Source: an uncultured bacterium (GTDB taxonomy: Bacteria > Armatimonadota > UBA5829 > DTLH01). Taken from it: 64,000 nt of DNA. Both the position numbers and the translations under genes were made by a program. The stretch lies in assembly GCA_964497515.1 (NCBI GenBank), contig CAZCCV010000009.1, positions 643 through 64,642 on the forward strand, given 5' to 3'. Shown piece after piece: positions 2-11,029 of this stretch; positions within the stretch are counted from its first letter, which is position 1; the number at the start of each line of letters is the position of its first letter. The notes under the pieces are model-generated. The model worked only from the letters and a program-made list of their open reading frames with translations, was not told the origin of the DNA and made no database searches.

Positions 2-1360
2 AAAACGACAACGTTCGAGTCGACTTCTGATGAAGAGTTCCTGCTGTTTGTCTCGACCGGCAACCAGTGCGCAAGCTCAGAGAAGACCAAGGAGTTCATC
101 GAAGCACGGAAAGCGGTAGCCCTTGAGTGGGAGAAGCGGTATGACAAACCGGAGCTTCAAGCTGCTTACGAAGGAATGTGGCGATCCGTTATCTGGAATA
201 CCATCTACGCTCCTTCGATTAAACGACCAGTGACTGTAGTATCCAGAGACTGGTGCGTCGATGGCAATTATGGAGATTTTGTGCTCTTTGAGTGGGACAC
301 TTTCTTTGCTGCACTTCAGGCAAGTACAGGCAGCAAAGAACTTGCATATAACAACGTCCGCGCAGTACTCTCCGGGATAACCGAGCGAGGTTTCGTTCCG
401 AGCATTTTCTGCGAGCTTGGAAAGAGCAGAGACAGATCTATGCTGCCGGTTGGTTCCATCATCGTTTGGAAGCTGTATGAGAAGTTCCAGGACAAAGAGT
501 TCCTGAAAGAGGTATTTCCTCAGCTCCTCGGTTGGCACAACTGGTGGATGCAGGCGCGCGATGGCAACGGCGATGGACTGCTGGAATGGGGCAGTGACAA
601 CTTCCCATCCCCACACCCACAGTGGCAGGCGTATACACTACAGGCAGCCAGGTACGAATCCGGACTCGACAACAGTCCGATGTACGACGATGTGGTGTTC
701 AACGAAGAGACCTGCACTATGGAGCTTACCGATGTCGGACTGAACTCTGCCTACGCAATGGACGGCTGGGCGCTTGCACAGATTGCTATGGCAATAGGCG
801 ATATGGTGACCGCAGAGACTCTAAGAGCAGAGCACGAAGAGATGAAAGTGCGAATCAACAAAATGCTCTGGAGTGAAGCCGATGGGATCTATCTCAACAG
901 AAGATGGAATGGCGAATTCTACAAACGACTTGCGCCGACTCTGTTCTACCCTATGACAGGCAGAGTTGCTGAACCGGAGCGAGCTGTCAGGATGGTTCGC
1001 GAGCACTTGCTGAACGATACTGAGTTCTGGGGAGAACACGTTGTGCCTAGTATTGCACGAAATGACCCGGCTTACCCAGATCAGGAATACTGGCGCGGTA
1101 GGATTTGGGGTCCGATGAACTGGCTCGTCTACGAAGGGTTGAAGGCATACAGGCTCGATGCTGCTGCAGCGTTGATGGGAGAAAAGTGCCTTAATACCTT
1201 CCTAAGTGAGTGGGTTGAGGAGTCACACGTGCACGAGAACTACAACGGAACTACCGGCGACGGAGACGATGCACGTTATTCGGAGCCTGTTTACTTCTGG
1301 GGTGGACTGCTCGCATTGATAGGACTTCTGGAAAGCCAGGTCGTAAAAGACGACGAGTAG
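2..1360 (+). CDS. glycoside hydrolase, (alpha/alpha)6-barrel clan GH-G (GH63/GH37 trehalase-like), 5' end outside window
   Basis: The frame of the listed 176..1360 ORF stays open back to position 2, so the gene enters from upstream. Motifs FEWDTFF, NGDGLLEWG, ESGLDNSPMYD and YWRGRIWGPMNWLVYEGL resemble GH63/GH37-type catalytic domains. Confidence 0.7.
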   Translation, partial: KTTTFESTSDEEFLLFVSTGNQCASSEKTKEFIEARKAVALEWEKRYDKPELQAAYEGMWRSVIWNTIYAPSIKRPVTVVSRDWCVDGNYGDFVLFEWDTFFAALQASTGSKELAYNNVRAVLSGITERGFVPSIFCELGKSRDRSMLPVGSIIVWKLYEKFQDKEFLKEVFPQLLGWHNWWMQARDGNGDGLLEWGSDNFPSPHPQWQAYTLQAARYESGLDNSPMYDDVVFNEETCTMELTDVGLNSAYAMDGWALAQIAMAIGDMVTAETLRAEHEEMKVRINKMLWSEADGIYLNRRWNGEFYKRLAPTLFYPMTGRVAEPERAVRMVREHLLNDTEFWGEHVVPSIARNDPAYPDQEYWRGRIWGPMNWLVYEGLKAYRLDAAAALMGEKCLNTFLSEWVEESHVHENYNGTTGDGDDARYSEPVYFWGGLLALIGLLESQVVKDDE

Positions 1361-1408: not shown

Positions 1409-2443
1409 CTACATTTTCAACGCTTTTTCGGCAAGTTCGATTGCAGTGACAAATACTTCCTCGGTTTGAGTTAGATCCGTAGTATAGCCTCTCCCCGATG
1501 TCGGTTGGCGCACTACCGCAATTTCCATATCCGCTTCTTTTTTCAGTTCGACAAGCTGTGATTTGAAACGTGCAAGCTTTGCTTCTTTCTTTGCATTCTT
1601 GTCGGCCGCAACACCAGTTTTGAAACCACCCGAGGGTGGCTTCTGGACTATTTCTTTGCATCTGTCGATTAGATAAAAGAGTGGCTTTGCTACCAGAATA
1701 CAGTACGTATATGGAAACTTTTTGGATTCAACGGAATTTAGAGTGGTCTGCACCTGCACACCTATGAAATCCTCATCGGAGTCCCTGAACTTGACGAGGA
1801 GCCTGCAATCCATAGGCACAGCGCCAGATTTCGTATTAGCTAACAACATCGAATAATGAAACTCCAACTGCGGCCAACTATCAGAGAGCCTGTGAATATG
1901 CATAAGCTGATTGATTCGCATGGCCAAATGAGGAGGTTGCCAAGCAACGACTCTTCCGGCAACAATCAACGGTAAAAACAGCGTAAACCCATCGATGATC
2001 AACACTTGCAGTAGCGGAGACTCATCGGGTGAGGTCAACCCAGAGTTCGGATTCAACAATCCGGTCAACAGTCGAAAGATCATCAACCCTACTACTAACA
2101 AAGCAAACAGAAAGAGACATCCACCCAAATTGGCGAGACAAGAGTTTCGAGAAATCCCTTGAGATCGCTTACTCATTTCGAGCGCAGATTCCAGTTCTTC
2201 GTATGTGACCTCACGCCACTCTTCTTTGCTCTTGAGCTTGGGTTTGTTCGATGCGTCTTTGATGCAAAGCAACAGCGCGGCAACTAAAACGAAGACCCAG
2301 CCTACGGCAAAAGACCAATCCAATTCGAAGCCAGAGACTGACTGAATGGTTATCCCAATCACTGCAGAAGCAGCAATTAGAACCATACGCACTTCGACAG
2401 ATAATGTGTTAGCTATAAGAAACTTGGGTTTCATCTCTTTCAA
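1409..2443 (-). CDS. hypothetical polytopic membrane protein, last gene of the rSAM operon
   Basis: The 344-aa ORF has about 4 hydrophobic helices in the first ~170 residues and a soluble C-terminal half. Its TTG start at 2443 overlaps the rSAM stop (TTGA); an alternative ATG lies at 2434. I recognise no family. Confidence 0.6.
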   Translation of the reverse strand: MKEMKPKFLIANTLSVEVRMVLIAASAVIGITIQSVSGFELDWSFAVGWVFVLVAALLLCIKDASNKPKLKSKEEWREVTYEELESALEMSKRSQGISRNSCLANLGGCLFLFALLVVGLMIFRLLTGLLNPNSGLTSPDESPLLQVLIIDGFTLFLPLIVAGRVVAWQPPHLAMRINQLMHIHRLSDSWPQLEFHYSMLLANTKSGAVPMDCRLLVKFRDSDEDFIGVQVQTTLNSVESKKFPYTYCILVAKPLFYLIDRCKEIVQKPPSGGFKTGVAADKNAKKEAKLARFKSQLVELKKEADMEIAVVRQPTSGRGYTTDLTQTEEVFVTAIELAEKALKM

Positions 2444-3771
2444 CTGCGTGCTGCAACCGCAACAGCCGATTCAATCTCTTTGTAACCGATAGCATCCCAA
2501 TATATCGGGCAGGCACCAGTGCAGATGTCAAAATGCCGACAGTCGCGACAGATGCGGTGAGCATACCTTTTTCCCCGCCAATAGCGGGACTTTCTGTTAT
2601 TCCAAACGCGCTGGAAGCCATCCTTCAGGATATTACCGACGTTCTTTGACAGACTGGAACACGGCAGAACTCCGCCATCTGGTGCTATCGAGAGAAGCCC
2701 ATCGCAGGCAGCGCACGACTTCCCTCCTAATCCCATAGCAACCGGATTCACAATGCAGTAGGGCGTAGGTGAATACCATAAGAACTCGACATCTGCCTCC
2801 CAAGCAGCTCGCTTCAGTTTATCGAGTAATTCAGGCATCTCAGAGTACAAGACAGTGACTCCTGTGTCCGGAGCCGTCCCGCACGGAATAACCATATTCA
2901 TCGACAGGCGTTTCAGCCCGAGTTCTTTGACAAGTCCGACAATTTCTGCGAGATGAGGCGCATTAATCCGGTTGATAGTAGTGTTGGTATGAACGTGCAA
3001 GCCGGCGTCTTTGAGCAGCGATATTCCGCGCAGGGTTCGATCGTACGAGCCGGGAGTCTGCGTAAGGGAATCGTGTATCTCGGCATTGGCACCTTCCAGA
3101 CTCACCTGTGCACTTCTGAGTCCAGCGTTTTTGAGCTGGTCTACGAGCTCCTGCGTCAGGTTATTGCCGTTAGTGATCAGATTGACTCGCATACCGAGCT
3201 CTGTTGCGTACGCGGTCAGTTCGACCAGGTCGCTTCTCAGCGTCGGTTCCCCACCCGTCCAACTGACACTCGGCACTTCTGCATCGTAACGAATGGCATC
3301 TAGAACCTGTTTCACCTCGGCTGTAGACATTTCACTACTGAAATTTCTGTCGCTTTTGGTGCAAGTGCACCCCGCGTAGCAGAACTTACAGCTAAGGTTG
3401 CAGCGATATGTGAGCGCGATTTCAGAAAGCACCGGCAGCGAGTTGTGCGGACGTGTAAATGATGTCTCTTCCACTGCTCGACGCCCTTTTCCTTCGCCCA
3501 AGCAGCCCATCACAAGAGCGCGAAGATCGCAGAAGAAGTGAAAAACGTCGGTAAGCACCTTTTCGTCTTTGGATAGTCCCTCAGACTTTTGCTCTAATAC
3601 ATCGATCAGCGAAGAACCGGCCATCATACGCCCGAGTATTGCAAGGCCAGCGGGATTCAGCTTGTACGCCTGGTTAGGAAGCAGTATCAGCAAGCTATCC
3701 CGCTCCCGGACGTATACGTATTCCGAGATGCTTTTCACAAAATCATCAGCCCAAGATACATCCACACTCAC
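2440..3771 (-). CDS. radical SAM/SPASM domain peptide-modifying enzyme with N-terminal PqqD-like RRE
   Basis: CNLSCKFC (CX3CX2C) radical SAM motif. SPASM-type C-terminus CAACDG...LPCS...CRDCRHFDICTGAC. The N-terminal ~95 aa (YVYVRERDSLLILLPNQAYKLNPAGLAILGRMMAGSSLIDVLE) resemble an RRE. I moved the start to GTG 3771, which sits 8 nt after a GGAGGT Shine-Dalgarno and overlaps the upstream TAG by 1 nt. The track start at 3909 reads through the neighbour's repeat in the wrong frame. Confidence 0.85.
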   Translation of the reverse strand: MSVDVSWADDFVKSISEYVYVRERDSLLILLPNQAYKLNPAGLAILGRMMAGSSLIDVLEQKSEGLSKDEKVLTDVFHFFCDLRALVMGCLGEGKGRRAVEETSFTRPHNSLPVLSEIALTYRCNLSCKFCYAGCTCTKSDRNFSSEMSTAEVKQVLDAIRYDAEVPSVSWTGGEPTLRSDLVELTAYATELGMRVNLITNGNNLTQELVDQLKNAGLRSAQVSLEGANAEIHDSLTQTPGSYDRTLRGISLLKDAGLHVHTNTTINRINAPHLAEIVGLVKELGLKRLSMNMVIPCGTAPDTGVTVLYSEMPELLDKLKRAAWEADVEFLWYSPTPYCIVNPVAMGLGGKSCAACDGLLSIAPDGGVLPCSSLSKNVGNILKDGFQRVWNNRKSRYWRGKRYAHRICRDCRHFDICTGACPIYWDAIGYKEIESAVAVAARS

Positions 3772-5438
3772 TAGTGCGCACCTCCGCTCACACACGCACT
3801 GTGGCAAGCTGAATGACAGGCGCTGTGGCACGCCGAATGACACGCACTGTGGCAAGCTGAATGACAAGCATCGTGGCAAGCAGTGTGAACGTAACAGGCT
3901 GAGTGACACGCATCCGAATGAATAAACGCTGAGTAACTTAGGCCAGCGCCAAAAGCGCGCTCTCCAATAGCTTTACTGATTTCGCTCGCCCTGCCCTTGC
4001 CCTCATTAGTGAATTCTCGGTACAAATGATACGCATAGAACCTGGAATAACTGTTGCCCCAAGACGTATAAGTATCATCCAAAGAACCACCGCGTTCGAC
4101 AGCTTCGAATTGTTCCTTGATCTGTTTCTTGTAGTATTCCTTTGTGGCTTCGAGATCGCAATCCCAAGCCTTAGCCTGTACTCTGTCGGTCATCTCGCGG
4201 AAGATATCCTTGATTGTGCTATCATCCAGCAAGCCTTCGTTGTGGATGGCGTTTAGCAGCATATTCTCGTACAAGCTTTCTGCAGAGATTCCAGGAGGAT
4301 AGAGTCTTTCGACCCGTATTGGATCAAGTGAAAGAACCTTTACCAAACCTCGCCTCTCCAGACTCGCGATAATCGTACCTACGATCTTGGACAGGGAAAT
4401 ATCCAGCAGAAGAGCCGCCTCAATTGGATCGAGTTCGGCAACCTTCCCTTGCTGACGGAAGCTGGAGACTTTTATGAGCGGCGGCACCCAGTCTGCATTC
4501 TCCCATCGCACTTCATCGAGTCGACTTGCAGCCTTTGAATACGTGTTCAGTTTGCGTGAGAACAGAATAAGCACGCCTACGACTACACTGAAAACAGCCA
4601 CTGCACCCGGCAAGCCCAACGGTTTGGCAGGAGTCTCAGGCATCATCGGAGCGACTGGATCAATTGGAAGATAGGGTGCATCCGGCGGCAATGTCTGTTG
4701 CTGCCCACCCTCCCCTGAAGGTGCGTCAGTTTTCAGAGTAAAATACTTCGCGTCAATATAGCACTGCAGATTGAACTTATACTGCGGAGGAACAGCATCT
4801 TTGTGGAACCGAACAGTCATATAGTAAGCGTTTTGGCTCGGCTGCCCGTAGTAGCTGATGAGGTATTCGCGGTTGACGAACTTCTCTGTCTTAAAGCCTG
4901 TCTTGTTCAGTAAGGCTTCATCGACTACTTCGCTTGCTGTTTTGATGGGATAGTGAAGATAGAGGGTATAGTGTCCTGCTGCTTGGTCGAACTGGCACGG
5001 CGCCCAATTGAGATATGCGAGCTTCCCGTCTGGCGCATCGGTGTAGCCAAGCATTCCGGCTGCCGCCAAATCTGTGCCGTAAAGGATAACGTACGTAACC
5101 TCTCCTCTTGAAACCGCAGCACCGTTCGCTAGCACAATATCGAATTGGTTGCCCAAATCAGTGATGGAGAGCTTATACTTGCGCCCACTAGAATCGACGG
5201 CATACGATTCGTCGTAGCCGAAATGTGGATATGCTCCGCTAAAACCCTGCAAGTAGAAGCCGTGAAGATCGCCGCTAAGCACTTTGTAACGGACTTTGTA
5301 GACAATTGTCGCCTTACCGTCGACGTGCGGCGATATGTCGACCTCGACCCACTTGAGTTCTACCGAGGTCGCCCAAACTGAAACACAGGAGAGCAGCAAC
5401 AAGCTGCTCAAAATCAGCACACGACGCAAGACAGACAC
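3771..5438 (-). CDS. signal-peptide/single-TM protein (DUF2207-like N-domain) with C-terminal (CHSA)n Cys/His repeat tail
   Basis: Signal peptide MSVLRRVLILSSLLLLSCVSVWA. Beta-rich N-domain with VDGKATIVYKVRYKV..LHGFY, then a Pro-rich linker, TM helix LGLPGAVAVFSVVVGVLILFS followed by RK, and a ~250-aa helical domain. The tail reads SDACHSACYVHTACHDA(CHSA)x6CVSGGAH. GTG start at 5438. Confidence 0.8.
   Translation of the reverse strand: MSVLRRVLILSSLLLLSCVSVWATSVELKWVEVDISPHVDGKATIVYKVRYKVLSGDLHGFYLQGFSGAYPHFGYDESYAVDSSGRKYKLSITDLGNQFDIVLANGAAVSRGEVTYVILYGTDLAAAGMLGYTDAPDGKLAYLNWAPCQFDQAAGHYTLYLHYPIKTASEVVDEALLNKTGFKTEKFVNREYLISYYGQPSQNAYYMTVRFHKDAVPPQYKFNLQCYIDAKYFTLKTDAPSGEGGQQQTLPPDAPYLPIDPVAPMMPETPAKPLGLPGAVAVFSVVVGVLILFSRKLNTYSKAASRLDEVRWENADWVPPLIKVSSFRQQGKVAELDPIEAALLLDISLSKIVGTIIASLERRGLVKVLSLDPIRVERLYPPGISAESLYENMLLNAIHNEGLLDDSTIKDIFREMTDRVQAKAWDCDLEATKEYYKKQIKEQFEAVERGGSLDDTYTSWGNSYSRFYAYHLYREFTNEGKGRASEISKAIGERAFGAGLSYSAFIHSDACHSACYVHTACHDACHSACHSACHSACHSACHSACHSACVSGGAH
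3792..3908 (-). repeat. coding tandem repeat, 12-nt (CXXX) unit organised as a 24-nt super-unit
   Basis: Minus-strand units are tgtcattcagct / tgccacagtgcg / tgtcattcggcg / tgccacagcgcc / tgtcattcagct / tgccacagtgcg. They are preceded by degenerate CHSA, CYVHTA and CHDA units. Confidence 0.95.
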
Positions 5439-5447
5439 AATTAGCTT

Positions 5448-5837
5448 TTATTCCCTCGAGGACTCTGTTCTAGCTCGCAGAAGATCAGCCTGAGCAGAGA
5501 TATACTGTGCAAAATCGCTTTTTGACTGAGACCACTCGGATTCACCAGGGAATGTTGAGACTACTCCCTGCCAGATAATCTGGTAGGTACGTTCCAGGCA
5601 CGGTCGAGAGTCTCCCTTTCCAGTGAACTCAAAAGTGGCTTCGATGTTTGTCGGCCGAAACACAGGCGTCGGGCCGGAGACTATCTCCGTTGCTACTCCG
5701 AGAAAAACAACGCCTAATTCTTCCACAACATCGAGGTGCTCTCTGATAGCGCGGACGACGGACGCAACAGAAAAGTCCGCAGAAGAGAAACGCATTGTAA
5801 GCAAAGAGCCATTTATGTCTCCATAAGGCATCTGCAT
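5448..5837 (-). CDS. hypothetical soluble protein, first gene of the rSAM operon
   Basis: 129-aa ORF with an AGGAGGG Shine-Dalgarno 8 nt upstream of ATG 5837. Its stop is 9 nt before the next gene. I recognise no family. Confidence 0.6.
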   Translation of the reverse strand: MQMPYGDINGSLLTMRFSSADFSVASVVRAIREHLDVVEELGVVFLGVATEIVSGPTPVFRPTNIEATFEFTGKGDSRPCLERTYQIIWQGVVSTFPGESEWSQSKSDFAQYISAQADLLRARTESSRE

Positions 5838-6015: not shown

Positions 6016-7131
6016 CTACCGAAGCACCTTCTCTGTTTCTGCGTCGAAGATATGTGTTCTCGCCATCTGCAAGACAAGCGATACATCATCACCCGGTGAA
6101 CAACCGGCAATCGGTGATTCCGAATCGATTGAAGCGACCATATCGTGATTGCCGGAGTTCAGGTACATTGTGACCGTTGCTCCCATTGGCTCGACAACAT
6201 CAACCCGGGCGGAAATGGTATTGTCTTCTGTTGGCTTCGCAACTGGGCTTAGGTCTCTATCGAAGATGTCTTCTGGTCTGATGCCGAATACTATCTGTTT
6301 GCCTGCGTAGTTTGATAGGTTCTCTGACTTCTCGGCGGTAGACCTTACAGTGAAGTGCCCTGTATTCACCAAATAGCCGTTCTCATCCTCTTCTAGTGTT
6401 GCTTGAACAAAATTCATTGCCGGACTTCCGATGAACCCTGCTACGAACAGGTTCGCTGGCTTGTTGTAGAGATTAAGAGGAGTATCTACCTGTTGGATTA
6501 CACCATCTTTCATTACGACTATGCGATCGCCCATCGTCATAGCTTCTACTTGGTCGTGTGTGACATAGATCGTTGTAATCCCGAGTCGCCTGTGGAGTTT
6601 AATCAATTCGGCGCGCGTTTGCACTCGCAGTTTTGCATCCAGGTTTGAGAGAGGTTCGTCCATAAGAAAGACTGCCGGTTCGCGCACGATAGCTCTGCCG
6701 AGCGCGACCCGCTGTCGCTGCCCGCCGGAGAGTTGCTTGGGCTTGCGATGGAGGAGTTCGGCAAGTCCCAGCAGCGCCGCGGCATCTTTTACGCGCTTTT
6801 CGATCTCCGCTTTGGGGAGTTTTTTGAGTTTCAGCGCAAACGACATATTGTCGTAGACGCTCATATGCGGGTACAGAGCGTAGTTCTGAAAAACCATCGC
6901 AATGTCGCGGTCTTTCGATGAGACGTCGTTTACGAGTTGATCACCGATGTATATCTCGCCTTCGGTAGCTTCTTCGAGACCGGCGACCATCCTGAGAGCG
7001 GTAGTCTTTCCACATCCAGAGGGACCAACAAGAACCAGAAACTCCTTGTCTTTGATCTCCAGGTTCATATTGTCGACAGCGACAACGTTCTTGAATGCTT
7101 TGGTAAGGTTCTTGAGAACCACTTGCGCCAT
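6016..7131 (-). CDS. sugar ABC transporter ATP-binding protein (MalK/UgpC/MsmX type)
   Basis: Walker A GPSGCGKTT, signature LSGGQRQR, Walker B FLMDEPLS, and a MalK-type C-terminal regulatory domain. Start set at ATG 7131 (MAQVVLKNL), which has an AGGAGG Shine-Dalgarno; the 77-aa extension in the track has no support. Confidence 0.9.
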   Translation of the reverse strand: MAQVVLKNLTKAFKNVVAVDNMNLEIKDKEFLVLVGPSGCGKTTALRMVAGLEEATEGEIYIGDQLVNDVSSKDRDIAMVFQNYALYPHMSVYDNMSFALKLKKLPKAEIEKRVKDAAALLGLAELLHRKPKQLSGGQRQRVALGRAIVREPAVFLMDEPLSNLDAKLRVQTRAELIKLHRRLGITTIYVTHDQVEAMTMGDRIVVMKDGVIQQVDTPLNLYNKPANLFVAGFIGSPAMNFVQATLEEDENGYLVNTGHFTVRSTAEKSENLSNYAGKQIVFGIRPEDIFDRDLSPVAKPTEDNTISARVDVVEPMGATVTMYLNSGNHDMVASIDSESPIAGCSPGDDVSLVLQMARTHIFDAETEKVLR

Positions 7132-7399
7132 AAGTAAGCAGCCTCCTAGTTTCGGGCCTGTCCCCATATCGCCGAAACCGCTAATAAAATGAAGTGCCCT
7201 GGGACTAGGGCTGAGCCCATTATATGGCCGAGAATTTGTGGTGTCAACGGAACAAGCTGCAAACAATGAATAGTCAGAACCTTGACTATCACAATACCGA
7301 TGATCGATGATGCTGCCGGAAATCAGCCATACTGCACATCTGATGACAATTTCACCGAGCAACCTTTCTTGACCTCGTCACAGGCGGGTAGTAGAATAT

Positions 7400-10300
7400 A
7401 TGTGTTGGTCGGCAGTCTGTGCTGCCGATAATACTATGGATGATTCAGGGTTTTGGCGTCCCCCACTCTTTTGCGCCAAAGCCCTTTTGGCGCTGTACGG
7501 ATATATGGCACTTTCAGACTTGCTGCAACTAAATAGCGATCTTCCGCAGTTTCGGAGTATAGTCGACGCTCTTGAGCAGTCAAAAGCAAGCGTGCACCTC
7601 GACGGGCTTTCGAATTCCGCAAAAGGATTTGTCCTCGGGGCACTATCTAAAGAACTCGCGCACCCGATGTTCATTCTCACCTACTCCAGCGAGCAGGCAG
7701 AGCGGCTTGCTGATGATTTTGCACAGTTTGGCATTGATGACTCCGAGCTCTATGTGCTTCCTTCGTCGGATGCGTTGATCTTTGAAGAAGGCGCACCGGA
7801 TTATGGGGCGATCGGGCACCGGCTGGCTGCAATGGACGCTATATCGAGTGGACGCCAAGTTATCGTAGTTGCTCCGATAAATGGCGCTCTCAGGCGAACT
7901 ATGCCGCGACAGATGCTGCACGATTACCGCCTAGAAGCGAGCGTCGGAGAGACTCTTGTAGTAGAAGACTTCGTGAGCCGGTTAGTCGATCTCGGCTACG
8001 AACGTGTTGATGTGTGCGAGAGCCACGGCGAGTTCAGTGTGCGCGGCGGAATAATCGACCTATATCCATCGAACGAGGTTGAACCACTCAGAATTGAGCT
8101 TTTCGGAGATGACATAGAGAGCATTCGGGCGTTCGATCCAACATCACAGCGTTCTACAGACCGCCGCAAAAGAATCCTTGCTCTGCCTGCAAGAGAGGTC
8201 GTGCTGACTGCAGCAAACGCAGATTCGGCAGCCGAGTCGATACACGCAGAGATGCAGGAGCAGATCCGCAAGTTTGAAGAAGCGGATCAGTCGGAAGAGG
8301 CGGCGCGATTGGAAGCCAAGGTAGAAGATGATATCTCCAGACTGACCAACCTTGCATACTTCGATGGAATCGAAGGCTACCTGCCTTATATTTATCCTGA
8401 AGAATACTCAATACTCGACTATCTTACGCCATCGGCTATCGTAGTATTTGACGAGCCACATCAGACTGCATCTCAGTGGGAGCAGCACGAGCAAGAGATG
8501 TTGGAAGCTCTGATAAATCGTGCCGGACGTGGGCTTCTACTGGCGTCTACAAAGAGTCAGCACGTATCAGTCGACTCTGCACTGGCAAAGCTTTCGAAAT
8601 CCTGGCCGGGACTAATTCTTACGGTTCTAGATAGACCGCTACCATACGGATTGAAGGGCACAAGGCTGCACGTTGAGTCATCACCCGTTGAAACATTCGC
8701 TGGCAAAATCGATCTCTTCGTAGACCAACTGAAAACATGGAGTGCAAACAAACTGCGCGCTGTTATAGCCACTAATCAGCACGACCGAACTGTGGAATTG
8801 CTCGGCGAACACGGCATTCCGATACGGCCTAACGAGGAGCTGACAGCCAATGCGCCATCGGGCGTATATCTGATTGCATCGCAGATGCGCTCTGGATTCA
8901 AACTGCCAGAAGCAAATCTGGTTGTAGTCTCAGATTCCGAAGTCTTTGGCATTACGCGCACTCGTCGTCCAAGAAAGACCGCCAAAGAAGGTGTGCCAAT
9001 ATCAACAATCCTCGACCTCAAAGAAGGGGATTACATAGTGCACATCTCGCACGGAATCGGTGTATACCGCGGTATCGAGCAGCTTACAGTAGAAAACGTG
9101 TCGCGGGAGTATTTGCTGCTGGAATACGCGGGTGAAGACAAACTCTATGTGCCAACCGAACAGATAGACAGAGTGCAGAAGTACATAGGTGGCGAAGGAA
9201 ACACTCCGCTGGTTCACAGGCTCGGAGGCAGTGAGTGGGTTAGAGCCACAAAGCGTGTGAAGCAGGCAGTAAGAGAGATGGCTAAGGAGCTGATTGAGCT
9301 GTATGCCTGGCGTCAGGCGCTCGGCGGTTACTCGTTCAGCCCGGATACGCCTTGGCAGCAGGAGATGGAATCGGCATTTCCTTACGAAGAGACAGCCGAC
9401 CAGATTGAGGCCATTAACGATGTGAAGCGCAATCTCGAAGAGCCCAAACCGATGGATCGACTGATATGTGGTGACGTTGGCTACGGTAAGACCGAAGTTG
9501 CCGTAAGAGCCGCTTTCAAGGTAGTAAACGATGGCAAGCAGGTCGCTGTTTTGGCTCCCACAACGGTGCTGGCACAGCAGCACTGGAACACGTTCAAAGA
9601 GCGCCTGGGCGCGTTTCCGATAGGCATAGAGATGCTCTCTCGGTTCCGCACGCGCAAGGAGTCAAAAGCGGTAGTAGAGGGCTTGGAGCTCGGCACAGTT
9701 GATATTGTTATCGGCACGCACAGACTCTTCTCGAAGGACGTCAAGTTCAAGGATCTTGGACTATTGATAGTCGACGAAGAACAGCGCTTCGGCGTCAGCC
9801 ACAAAGAGCGTCTGAAGCAGTTGAAGAAGAACGTAGATGCACTCACCCTTACAGCAACGCCGATTCCAAGGACTCTGCATATGTCGCTTGCCGGCATACG
9901 CGATATGAGCGTGATTAACGATCCACCAGAGGGCAGAACACCGATTAAGACGTTTGTGCGCGAATATGACGACGAAGTAGTCCGCGAAGCGATAATCCGC
10001 GAGATTGACCGTGGTGGACAAGTATTCTTTGTACACAACAGAGTGGAAAACATCGAACACGTTGCAGAACATATCGCAAAGCTGGTGCCGTATGCGCGCG
10101 TCGATATAGGCCACGGTCAAATGGATGAAGACGATCTGGAACGGGTTATGCTCGATTTCTACGACCGGAAGTACGATGTGTTAGTCTGCACGACGATAGT
10201 CGAAAGCGGGTTGGACATTCCAAACGTCAATACAATTGTAGTGAACAACGCAGATAAAATGGGGCTCGCGCAGCTTTATCAGCTCCGAGGGAGAGTTGGC

Positions 10301-11029
10301 CGGTCAAATAAGCAGGCATACGCCTATTTGATGTACAAAGCCGACAAGTCTCTTACCGAAGTCGCGGAGAAACGACTCGAAGCGATTCGTGAGTTCACCG
10401 ATCTGGGTTCTGGCTTCAGAATCGCGCTTAGAGATTTGGAAATCCGGGGTGCGGGGAATCTATTAGGAGCTGAACAACACGGCCAGATAGCTCAAGTAGG
10501 TTTCGACCTTTACTGCCAACTGCTATCGCAGGCGGTTTCGGAGTTGAAGGGAGAGGAAGTTCAGGAGGTTCAGCTTCCACAAGTGGATCTGCCAATCGAC
10601 GCCTACATCCCTCAAGACTATATGACCGCTGAAGCGCAGAGAATATTCTTTTACAAGAAGATGGCAGCGGCGAAGACTGAAAAGGAAGTCCGTCAGATCC
10701 AGGACGAACTGGACGACCGTTTTGGCGACCCACCCAAGCAAGTATGGAATATGCTTTCGATACTGCGTATGAGAATCAGAGCGGCTGAGGTTGGTATTTC
10801 GTCGATATCTACCGACAAGCGGCAGATAATCATTCGATTTGCCCCAGGATTCAGGTTGATTCAGGAAGTGCAGCGCGAGCTTCAGCGCACACATAAGCGT
10901 CACTGGTTCCAGGGCGATAGAGTCGCGATCAACCCGGACACGCCGAGAATTGTCAATCTGGTGGAAGATATGATTGAGATTGTGGCAAAGGGGCTTAAAA
11001 CCAGTGCGAAGAAAATGCAGGTAGCTTAA
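7400..11029 (+). CDS. mfd: transcription-repair coupling factor
   Basis: UvrB-homology N-terminus, CarD-like RID (GDYIVHISHGIG), helicase motifs GDVGYGKTEVA and DEEQRFG, and a TRG/C-terminal domain. The start is uncertain; ATG 7505 (MALSDLLQL) is a plausible alternative. Confidence 0.93.
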   Translation: MCWSAVCAADNTMDDSGFWRPPLFCAKALLALYGYMALSDLLQLNSDLPQFRSIVDALEQSKASVHLDGLSNSAKGFVLGALSKELAHPMFILTYSSEQAERLADDFAQFGIDDSELYVLPSSDALIFEEGAPDYGAIGHRLAAMDAISSGRQVIVVAPINGALRRTMPRQMLHDYRLEASVGETLVVEDFVSRLVDLGYERVDVCESHGEFSVRGGIIDLYPSNEVEPLRIELFGDDIESIRAFDPTSQRSTDRRKRILALPAREVVLTAANADSAAESIHAEMQEQIRKFEEADQSEEAARLEAKVEDDISRLTNLAYFDGIEGYLPYIYPEEYSILDYLTPSAIVVFDEPHQTASQWEQHEQEMLEALINRAGRGLLLASTKSQHVSVDSALAKLSKSWPGLILTVLDRPLPYGLKGTRLHVESSPVETFAGKIDLFVDQLKTWSANKLRAVIATNQHDRTVELLGEHGIPIRPNEELTANAPSGVYLIASQMRSGFKLPEANLVVVSDSEVFGITRTRRPRKTAKEGVPISTILDLKEGDYIVHISHGIGVYRGIEQLTVENVSREYLLLEYAGEDKLYVPTEQIDRVQKYIGGEGNTPLVHRLGGSEWVRATKRVKQAVREMAKELIELYAWRQALGGYSFSPDTPWQQEMESAFPYEETADQIEAINDVKRNLEEPKPMDRLICGDVGYGKTEVAVRAAFKVVNDGKQVAVLAPTTVLAQQHWNTFKERLGAFPIGIEMLSRFRTRKESKAVVEGLELGTVDIVIGTHRLFSKDVKFKDLGLLIVDEEQRFGVSHKERLKQLKKNVDALTLTATPIPRTLHMSLAGIRDMSVINDPPEGRTPIKTFVREYDDEVVREAIIREIDRGGQVFFVHNRVENIEHVAEHIAKLVPYARVDIGHGQMDEDDLERVMLDFYDRKYDVLVCTTIVESGLDIPNVNTIVVNNADKMGLAQLYQLRGRVGRSNKQAYAYLMYKADKSLTEVAEKRLEAIREFTDLGSGFRIALRDLEIRGAGNLLGAEQHGQIAQVGFDLYCQLLSQAVSELKGEEVQEVQLPQVDLPIDAYIPQDYMTAEAQRIFFYKKMAAAKTEKEVRQIQDELDDRFGDPPKQVWNMLSILRMRIRAAEVGISSISTDKRQIIIRFAPGFRLIQEVQRELQRTHKRHWFQGDRVAINPDTPRIVNLVEDMIEIVAKGLKTSAKKMQVA

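Follow-up and report, generated by a model that had tools for sequence, protein, structure and literature searches.

The question raised by this locus is why the end of a protein-coding gene should repeat a four-residue peptide whose synonymous codons alternate strictly from one unit to the next, and what the repeated peptide does. The locus lies in a 64,000-nucleotide stretch of DNA from an uncultured Armatimonadota bacterium (assembly GCA_964497515.1, contig CAZCCV010000009.1, positions 643 to 64,642), referred to as the window, meaning the whole of the stretch analysed. Here a minus-strand gene encodes a 555-residue membrane protein ending in a tail of Cys-His-Ser-Ala (CHSA) units, and is translationally coupled to a gene immediately downstream for a maturase of the radical S-adenosylmethionine (radical SAM)/SPASM type, a context missed by the original prediction, which was made from the window's letters alone. 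The array is probably a core-peptide-like cytoplasmic tail that serves as the substrate of the coupled enzyme, with the codon alternation a by-product of copying in 24 nt segments. The gene and its array comprise the following features, the coordinates being those of the window:

3771-5438, minus strand: gene for the 555-residue tail-bearing protein, with signal peptide, extracytoplasmic beta-sandwich, one transmembrane helix, a cytoplasmic winged-helix-like and helical region, and the Cys/His tail (open reading frame (ORF), hydropathy, AlphaFold2 (AF2) model, Foldseek, 560 cluster representatives)
3774-3908, minus strand: whole Cys/His tail, residues 511-555, CHSA CYVHTA CHDA (CHSA)x6 CVSGGAH, 10 Cys and 10 His in all; almost invariant among about 60 homologues
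3795-3866, minus strand: the six perfect units of CHSA (residues 525-548), whose codons alternate strictly as TGT/TGC, CAT/CAC and TCN/AGY (codon table; TRF period 24)
3840-3866, minus strand: first copy of a 27 nt exact direct repeat, units 1-2 and the next TGT (repeat search)
3792-3818, minus strand: second copy of the 27 nt repeat, units 5-6 and the next TGT (repeat search; p=0.0005 against synonymous shuffles)

The codon alternation is real, and by itself of modest interest. Units 1 and 5 read TGT CAT TCA GCT, units 2 and 6 TGC CAC AGT GCG, unit 3 TGT CAT TCG GCG and unit 4 TGC CAC AGC GCC, such that units 1-2 are identical to units 5-6 and the middle pair is off at four third positions, all of them synonymous, exactly as first described and on the minus strand. 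In the translation of 3771-5438 the protein ends ...SDACHSACYVHTACHDA(CHSA)x6CVSGGAH*, and the 10 Cys of the tail are found at four-residue spacing, apart from one unit of six residues. Alternation of Cys codons spans nine consecutive positions (residues 515-549), and the interval 3792-3908 on the minus strand covers the tail from its first Cys codon to its last; TRF assigned a period of 24 and 3.8 copies to 3792-3881, and the two 27 nt copies are spaced 48 nt apart. When codons were shuffled within the array, perfect alternation had a probability of approximately 0.03 for Cys and approximately 0.03 for His, each tested alone, and the joint alternation of Cys, His and Ser codon class had one of around 1e-5 under independent codon choice at the codon frequencies of the family. 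The exact in-register repetition of 24 nt was similarly rare among synonymous shuffles (p=0.0005). All four differences between the 24 nt copies within the array are synonymous (the proportions of synonymous and non-synonymous differences, pS and pN, being 0.86 and 0; P=0.0014), which bears out the earlier proposal that the peptide is under purifying selection. The mRNA of the tail was not more stable than its shuffles (z=+1.2), and no inverted repeats or significant hairpin were found in the array region. An odd palindrome, CACAGTG (in TGC CAC AGT GCG), lies within every even-numbered unit of 3795-3866 (minus strand).

The tail is widely distributed. A pattern scan of GTDB species genomes identified 62 loci, a word-indexed protein search five homologues, whether or not the tail was included, and an exhaustive hidden Markov model (HMM) search with the tail protein 560 cluster representatives at E<=1e-3. 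Some 60 genomes carry the cassette and represent at least 12 phyla, mostly uncultivated, the sources being Armatimonadota, Planctomycetota (including Kuenenia), Omnitrophota, Elusimicrobiota, Acidobacteriota, Aminicenantes, WOR-3, Nitrospirota, Spirochaetota, Hydrogenedentota, Firestonebacteria, Fischerbacteria and one Clostridia metagenome-assembled genome (MAG). The closest homologues of the window protein are from Armatimonadota, at 52-61% identity, and a metagenome scan found its nearest relatives at only 55-60%. All complete homologues end in ...ACHDA(CH[SDGN]A)nCVSGGAH* or ...CVSSGH*; the Cys, His and Ala of each unit are invariant, and the third residue, X, may be S, D, G, N or A. Across 87 complete tails the number of units ranges from 2 to 10, with a mode of 7 (48 arrays) followed by 8 (20 arrays). 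Compared with 42 seven-unit arrays from homologues, the window array has 96.7% amino acid identity, and the codon differs at 63% of the identical residues, whereas the protein bodies outside the tail are 28-61% identical, and synonymous sites in the tail are saturated. These contrasts show, as was argued from the codons, a functional tail kept by strong purifying selection, not a low-complexity accident. Its conservation exceeds that of nearly every other part of the cassette proteins, and the presence of a tail of the same length and amino acid sequence in more than 40 independent assemblies shows that the array is not an artefact of assembly. Some tails depart from the common form: P0110 has a few CHxA units followed by a terminal CDSCHSS-type repeat, P0002 has CPSA units with Pro in place of His, and P0025 ends in ...CHSACHSAWHSARP, perhaps through a frameshift or truncation.

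Strict alternation is not a trait of this family, in which the signal is weak and lineage-driven. Orthologues keep the same tail, with 7-8 units as the mode, but not the codon pattern of the window: its closest relatives (L015, L006, L004/5, L066 and L067) are without it, most homologous arrays do not alternate, and in several of them neighbouring units are identical. Alternation limited to Cys is found in L010, L025/26/28 and L060, and alternation limited to His in some Elusimicrobia; the alternating codons and their phases are unlike between lineages. A 24 nt periodicity is carried by the window, L016 (WOR-3), L030 (Acidobacteriota), and L042 and L054 (both Aminicenantes). Among 61 distinct arrays, long exact in-register repeats exceeded those of synonymous shuffles at p<0.01 in four (the window, L016, L042 and L054) and at p<0.05 in seven, with lags mostly of 24 or 48 nt, one of 36 and none of 12; L007 has a 23 nt exact repeat at lag 36. 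Codons two units apart were identical more often than expected (z=+2.7), as were whole 12 nt units at this lag (27 against 11.9 expected, z=4.8). The same two-unit period is visible in the protein, as (CHDA-CHSA)n in P0001, P0006, P0010 and P0022 and as an excess of X-residue identity at lag 2 (z=+3.7). The positions of AGY Ser codons in the window match those of AGC Ser codons in L001. The alternation is best read as the trace of recurrent copying events, by duplication or gene conversion, that are specific to lineages and involve multiples of 12 nt, with a preference for 24 nt. In some arrays (L007, L017 and L019) there is a three-unit, 36 nt period, that of L019 being (AGC TCG TCG)x2, and P0016 has an S-D-S periodicity at the protein level.

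These comparisons qualify the proposal that the array grew by duplication of an eight-codon unit. The unit itself is supported by the 24 nt register of the four arrays with the most significant repeats, to which L030 is similar, and by the lag-2 period of the protein. Arrays evidently grow and shrink, as unit number ranges so widely over the family, but the window stands at the modal seven units in common with relatives that do not have its pattern, and therefore the event in its lineage is more likely to have been a conversion or replacement than net growth.

The architecture of the tail-bearing protein bears on the function of the array. Two features are relevant to its topology:

5367-5438, minus strand: predicted N-terminal signal peptide, residues 1-24, approximate (hydrophobic stretch 1-28; helix 2-17 in the AF2 model)
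4527-4613, minus strand: single transmembrane helix, residues ~276-304, followed by RK (hydropathy and AF2 model)

The AF2 model was built from six sequences and is mediocre (pLDDT 60), with the tail itself at low confidence, and has moderate confidence for a beta-sandwich domain at residues ~25-229; Foldseek matched this domain to the luminal domain of ribophorin I/OST1 and the N-domain of M1 aminopeptidases. After the transmembrane helix come approximately 250 residues, winged-helix-like with further helices, which end in the Cys/His tail. From the signal peptide, the single transmembrane helix and the RK that follows it, we infer by the positive-inside rule that this C-terminal region and the tail are cytoplasmic, and consequently on the same side of the membrane as the radical SAM enzyme. 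Pfam and NCBIfam scans of the window tail protein found no family at cut-off; PF09972 (DUF2207), for which a precomputed match exists on the homologue fragment P0005, has no Pfam match in the window protein.

The enzyme gene begins where the tail ends, and has the following features:

2440-3771, minus strand: radical SAM/SPASM enzyme, 443 residues (PF04055 at 103.8 bits, cut-off 29.5; PF13186 at 39 bits, cut-off 21.5)
3379-3402, minus strand: CX3CX2C radical SAM cluster motif, C124, C128 and C131 (protein sequence)
2509-2757, minus strand: SPASM Cys set for auxiliary Fe-S clusters, C339, C353, C356, C371, C408, C411, C417 and C421 (PF13186 match and sequence)
3427-3771, minus strand: PqqD-like N-terminal domain of the RiPP recognition element (RRE) type, residues 1-115 (weak match in the window; matches in orthologues)
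3781-3785, minus strand: GGAGG Shine-Dalgarno sequence of the enzyme gene, inside the tail codons for Gly552 and Gly553, GGA GGT (sequence; same arrangement in many homologues)

The tail closes with the codons AGC GGA GGT GCG CAC TAG, which lie within 3769-3790 (minus strand), and the TAG stop shares one nucleotide with the GTG start of the enzyme at 3771 (minus strand). Across the loci this overlap takes the form TAGTG or TGATG, and many homologues have AGCGGAGG...TGATG; the conserved 'SGG' may therefore be constrained at the level of the ribosome-binding site as well as that of the peptide. Wherever a locus includes downstream sequence, the genes stand in the order tail protein, radical SAM/SPASM enzyme and a third gene, p344, L054 being the one exception. 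The PqqD-like profile PF05402 matches the N-terminal domain of 18 of 35 orthologous enzymes, with a best E of 8.2e-5, and no other family recurs there. The enzyme scores below every curated cut-off in NCBIfam, reaching 83-121 bits with peptide maturase models, and the solved structures nearest to it include the peptide maturases PqqE, SkfB (6efn) and CteB (5wgg), along with BlsE. A role as a defence gene was rejected, PADLOC showing generic viperin-core similarity only.

We infer that the tail is most likely the substrate of this enzyme, given how closely the two genes are linked and that their translation is coupled, the RRE-like domain of the enzyme, and the cytoplasmic position and Cys-centred repeat of the tail. 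The tail would act as an embedded 'core peptide' at the end of the 555-residue single-pass membrane protein. The enzyme would most likely dock just upstream of the array and modify the (Ala-Cys-His-x) units one by one, with Cys as the reactive residue. Homology assigns no chemistry, and sulfur-to-carbon cross-links of the thioether type are a first guess, by analogy with other Cys-rich SPASM substrates. As the cassette includes no protease or exporter gene in the loci neighbourhoods compared, the tail, once modified, would probably remain on the membrane protein. In the lineage of the window, duplication or gene conversion inside the array would have made a copy of a two-unit segment of 24 nt, and the TGT-CAT-TCN/TGC-CAC-AGY super-unit would have hitch-hiked with it, selection meanwhile keeping the peptide sequence and holding the unit number near the family mode.

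More tentatively, and with rather less confidence, the cassette may be an undescribed cross-phylum system in which the radical SAM enzyme adds modifications in a regular ladder to an (Ala-Cys-His-x)7-10 tail that is constrained in length and kept on the transmembrane protein. This could give a new type of protein-embedded cofactor or metal/redox module, similar to a peptide that is made by the ribosome and modified after translation (a RiPP), on the cytoplasmic side of a receptor-like protein that is exposed at the surface.

Several points weigh against the tail being a substrate whose codons record copying. A literature search on the tail peptide and cassette found nothing relevant, and no experiment or paper tying the radical SAM enzyme to the tail. 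The N-terminal domain of the window enzyme reaches only 13.3 bits with PF05402 (E=0.11; gathering score 23.4 bits). The best matches of the enzyme are not peptide maturases but the tetrapyrrole enzymes AhbD/NirJ (TIGR04545 at 164, TIGR04051 at 132.8 and TIGR04055 at 140 bits), though these scores are far under the equivalog cut-offs of 500-515 (500 for AhbD). L054 (913-4346, from an Aminicenantes MAG) encodes a tail protein with a strictly 24 nt-periodic array, but the next 6 kb downstream contain no gene for a radical SAM enzyme; a homocysteine methyltransferase/MTHFR-like fusion occupies its place. A membrane-anchored 'leader' of 500 residues is unusual among RiPP-like systems, and a ladder of Cys and His could just bind metals without covalent modification. 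Finally, a model consisting purely of copy events does not wholly explain the deficit of identical adjacent codons seen family-wide before related loci are collapsed.

The metal-binding alternative, which we consider unlikely, is that the tail serves to bind metal or Fe-S clusters, with adjacent unit pairs (C-H-x-A-C-H) forming Cys2His2-type sites and making the eight-residue period functional, and that the radical SAM enzyme acts elsewhere, or uses or loads the tail. The constancy of Cys, His and Ala while X varies would suit such sites, as would the lag-2 period of the protein, the holding of modal length at 7-8 units, and the existence in L054 of a tail protein without an adjacent radical SAM gene; a gene for a NifU-like Fe-S scaffold follows the cassette in 10 Elusimicrobia loci, although this linkage is confined to one clade. 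However, near-obligate adjacency to the radical SAM gene, translational coupling and the RRE-like domain indicate a peptide substrate, and unit numbers, which are often odd and vary from 2 to 10, are a poor fit to obligatory pairs. Metal binding and enzymatic modification are also compatible, as a modified tail could bind metal too.

Alternatively, the alternation might be kept by selection because it breaks up perfect 12 nt tandems and so lowers replication slippage where array length matters, as was originally suggested. Over the 61 arrays, identical codons in adjacent units are depleted (607 observed against 685 expected from shuffles, z=-5.8), with z of -2.9 for Cys, -3.0 for His and -3.7 for Ser class taken singly; in addition, homogenisation in register is seen at lags of 24, 36 and 48 nt but never 12, and identical adjacent 12 nt units are no commoner than in shuffles (13 against 13.0). 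However, as the loci are related, the arrays were collapsed to 30 clusters, after which the lag-1 deficit fell to z=-3.0 with every column counted and to -2.2 with Cys, His and Ala alone, or to -1.6 for these three with the window excluded; sign tests on the collapsed set were near 50:50, with 16 of 29 for Cys, His and Ala without the window. With most arrays lacking alternation, and several having identical neighbouring units, reduced slippage lacks support as a general rule, and in the window itself the 27 nt exact repeat at 48 nt spacing is a good substrate for slippage and deletion. A translational benefit of alternation is not expected either, since Cys and His are each read by one tRNA. 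Selection against slippage, although compatible with the lack of homogenisation at lag 12, is not required and is an improbable explanation of the pattern.

A reading of the repeat as a chance low-complexity run, an artefact of assembly or the product of another frame is refuted by the comparisons: overlapping ORFs do exist (118 residues on the plus strand at 3569-3925, and a called radical SAM ORF that crosses the tail), but some 60 independent assemblies, representing at least 12 phyla, conserve the amino acids of the CHSA frame and vary mainly at third positions, the tail always closes with CVSGGAH or CVSSGH and a stop, the enzyme's orthologues start at or after that stop, and the tail mRNA has no excess stability.

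The ORFs in other frames and on the other strand were themselves ruled out, as variation at third positions follows the CHSA frame. The program-called radical SAM ORF has 489 codons and reaches 3909, adding 46 upstream codons that run through the CHSA array in another frame (MSLSLLRSHCLPRC...); as a reading of this gene it is an over-extension, orthologues beginning at or downstream of the stop codon of the tail gene. It serves as a caution for annotation, in that gene callers can wrongly extend the radical SAM ORF across the repeat in a different frame.

Two further genes flank this pair:

1409-2443, minus strand: p344, third cassette gene, 344 residues, with about four hydrophobic helices and, at its C-terminus, a soluble domain; of no known family (conserved synteny, hydropathy)
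5448-5837, minus strand: p129, upstream gene, 129 residues; no known family (only in the CVSGGAH-type sub-clade)

The p129 protein is highly conserved, its column identity averaging 69% across 19 orthologues, and comparison of p344 and p129 with Pfam, NCBIfam and PDB profiles gave no meaningful match. In 10 Elusimicrobia loci (L029 (10291-11125), L031, L032, L035, L037, L041, L043, L044, L049 and L064), the NifU-like gene is located just downstream of the p344 homologue, and a gene for a membrane protein of ~190 residues just upstream of the tail gene; both may reflect mere synteny, since both are clade-specific. Further conserved neighbours across the loci were limited to such clade-specific genes of the Elusimicrobia and to antisense junk ORFs. 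The flanks of the window appear housekeeping-like by translation alone, with a glycoside hydrolase-like ORF at 176-1360 (plus strand), a MalK/UgpC-type ABC ATPase at 6016-7362 (minus strand) and the transcription-repair coupling factor Mfd at 7400-11029 (plus strand). ABC ATPase ORFs from 15 loci form a single similarity cluster, but at least one of them sits on the other side of the cassette, so this does not show linkage.

Among known systems, the only family matched by the tail is TIGR04117 ('Syntroph_Cxxx'), which together with PF27846 ('tSAM_targ_Cxxx_rpt') describes C-terminal tandem four-residue units beginning with Cys and encoded beside a radical SAM/SPASM gene, as here. The window protein is not a member of TIGR04117, since its tail alone scores 15.1 bits and the whole protein 10.7 against a cut-off of 50; PF27846 has faint precomputed matches on homologues and none to the window protein in the Pfam scan. 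The TIGR04117 profile has 98 positions, whereas here the array ends a 555-residue protein with a signal peptide and transmembrane helix, the unit is A-C-H-x and the end is fixed as CVSGGAH or CVSSGH. To our knowledge, the TIGR04117 family has been defined by bioinformatics alone. The target of the ACGX system consists of tandem Ala-Cys-Gly-Xaa units, with the same four-residue A-C-x-x logic as A-C-H-x; it differs in having Gly in place of His, and here the target is a membrane protein. The radical SAM model of that system, TIGR04340, scores 106.2 bits with the window enzyme against a cut-off of 400, and the ACGX peptide models had no match to the tail at E<=10.

Among experimentally studied systems, the best precedent for an enzyme that works its way through a short repeat is TvgA/TvgB, in which a radical SAM/SPASM enzyme iteratively modifies a TVGG repeat in the C-terminal part of its precursor (PMC9062424). 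The tail has no sequence relationship to this system, in which poly-cyclopropylglycine arises through a C-C bond at Val in a small precursor, with a peptidase/transporter in the cluster, whereas the motif here is of Cys and His. PapB and Tte1186 are SPASM enzymes that form thioethers, and in both an auxiliary cluster is bound by the Cys of the substrate (PMC10177961). PapB (freyrasin), Tte1186/CteB (SCIFF ranthipeptides) and SkfB (a sactipeptide) resemble the present system in combining Cys-rich substrates with SPASM auxiliary clusters, but their substrates are short leader-core peptides rather than a full membrane protein, for which a thioether is only putative. The window enzyme falls short of the PapB (NF047865, 82.7 bits against 340), StsB (NF045574, 90.7 against 625) and SkfB (TIGR04403, 88.7 against 300) models. 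The anaerobic sulfatase-maturing enzyme and QhpD, acting on QhpC, are SPASM enzymes that modify Cys of proteins which retain the modification; these use other recognition motifs and no repeat array, and their models are not among the best 25 NCBIfam matches of the window enzyme.

Set against these systems, the cassette proteins reach no curated family cut-off other than those of the generic radical SAM and SPASM Pfam domains of the enzyme. The codon pattern is a clean case of concerted evolution in a very short coding repeat under strong peptide constraint, though it is outweighed by its context of three or four linked genes in about 60 genomes. If the tail is the substrate of the radical SAM enzyme, radical SAM 'peptide' maturation would extend to the end of a full-length membrane protein, and the repeated identical sites would make a simple test substrate for finding the chemistry. 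The system resembles the uncharacterised Cxxx-repeat radical SAM targets without being a member of them, and the conserved cassette is a more valuable lead than the codon pattern that drew attention to it.

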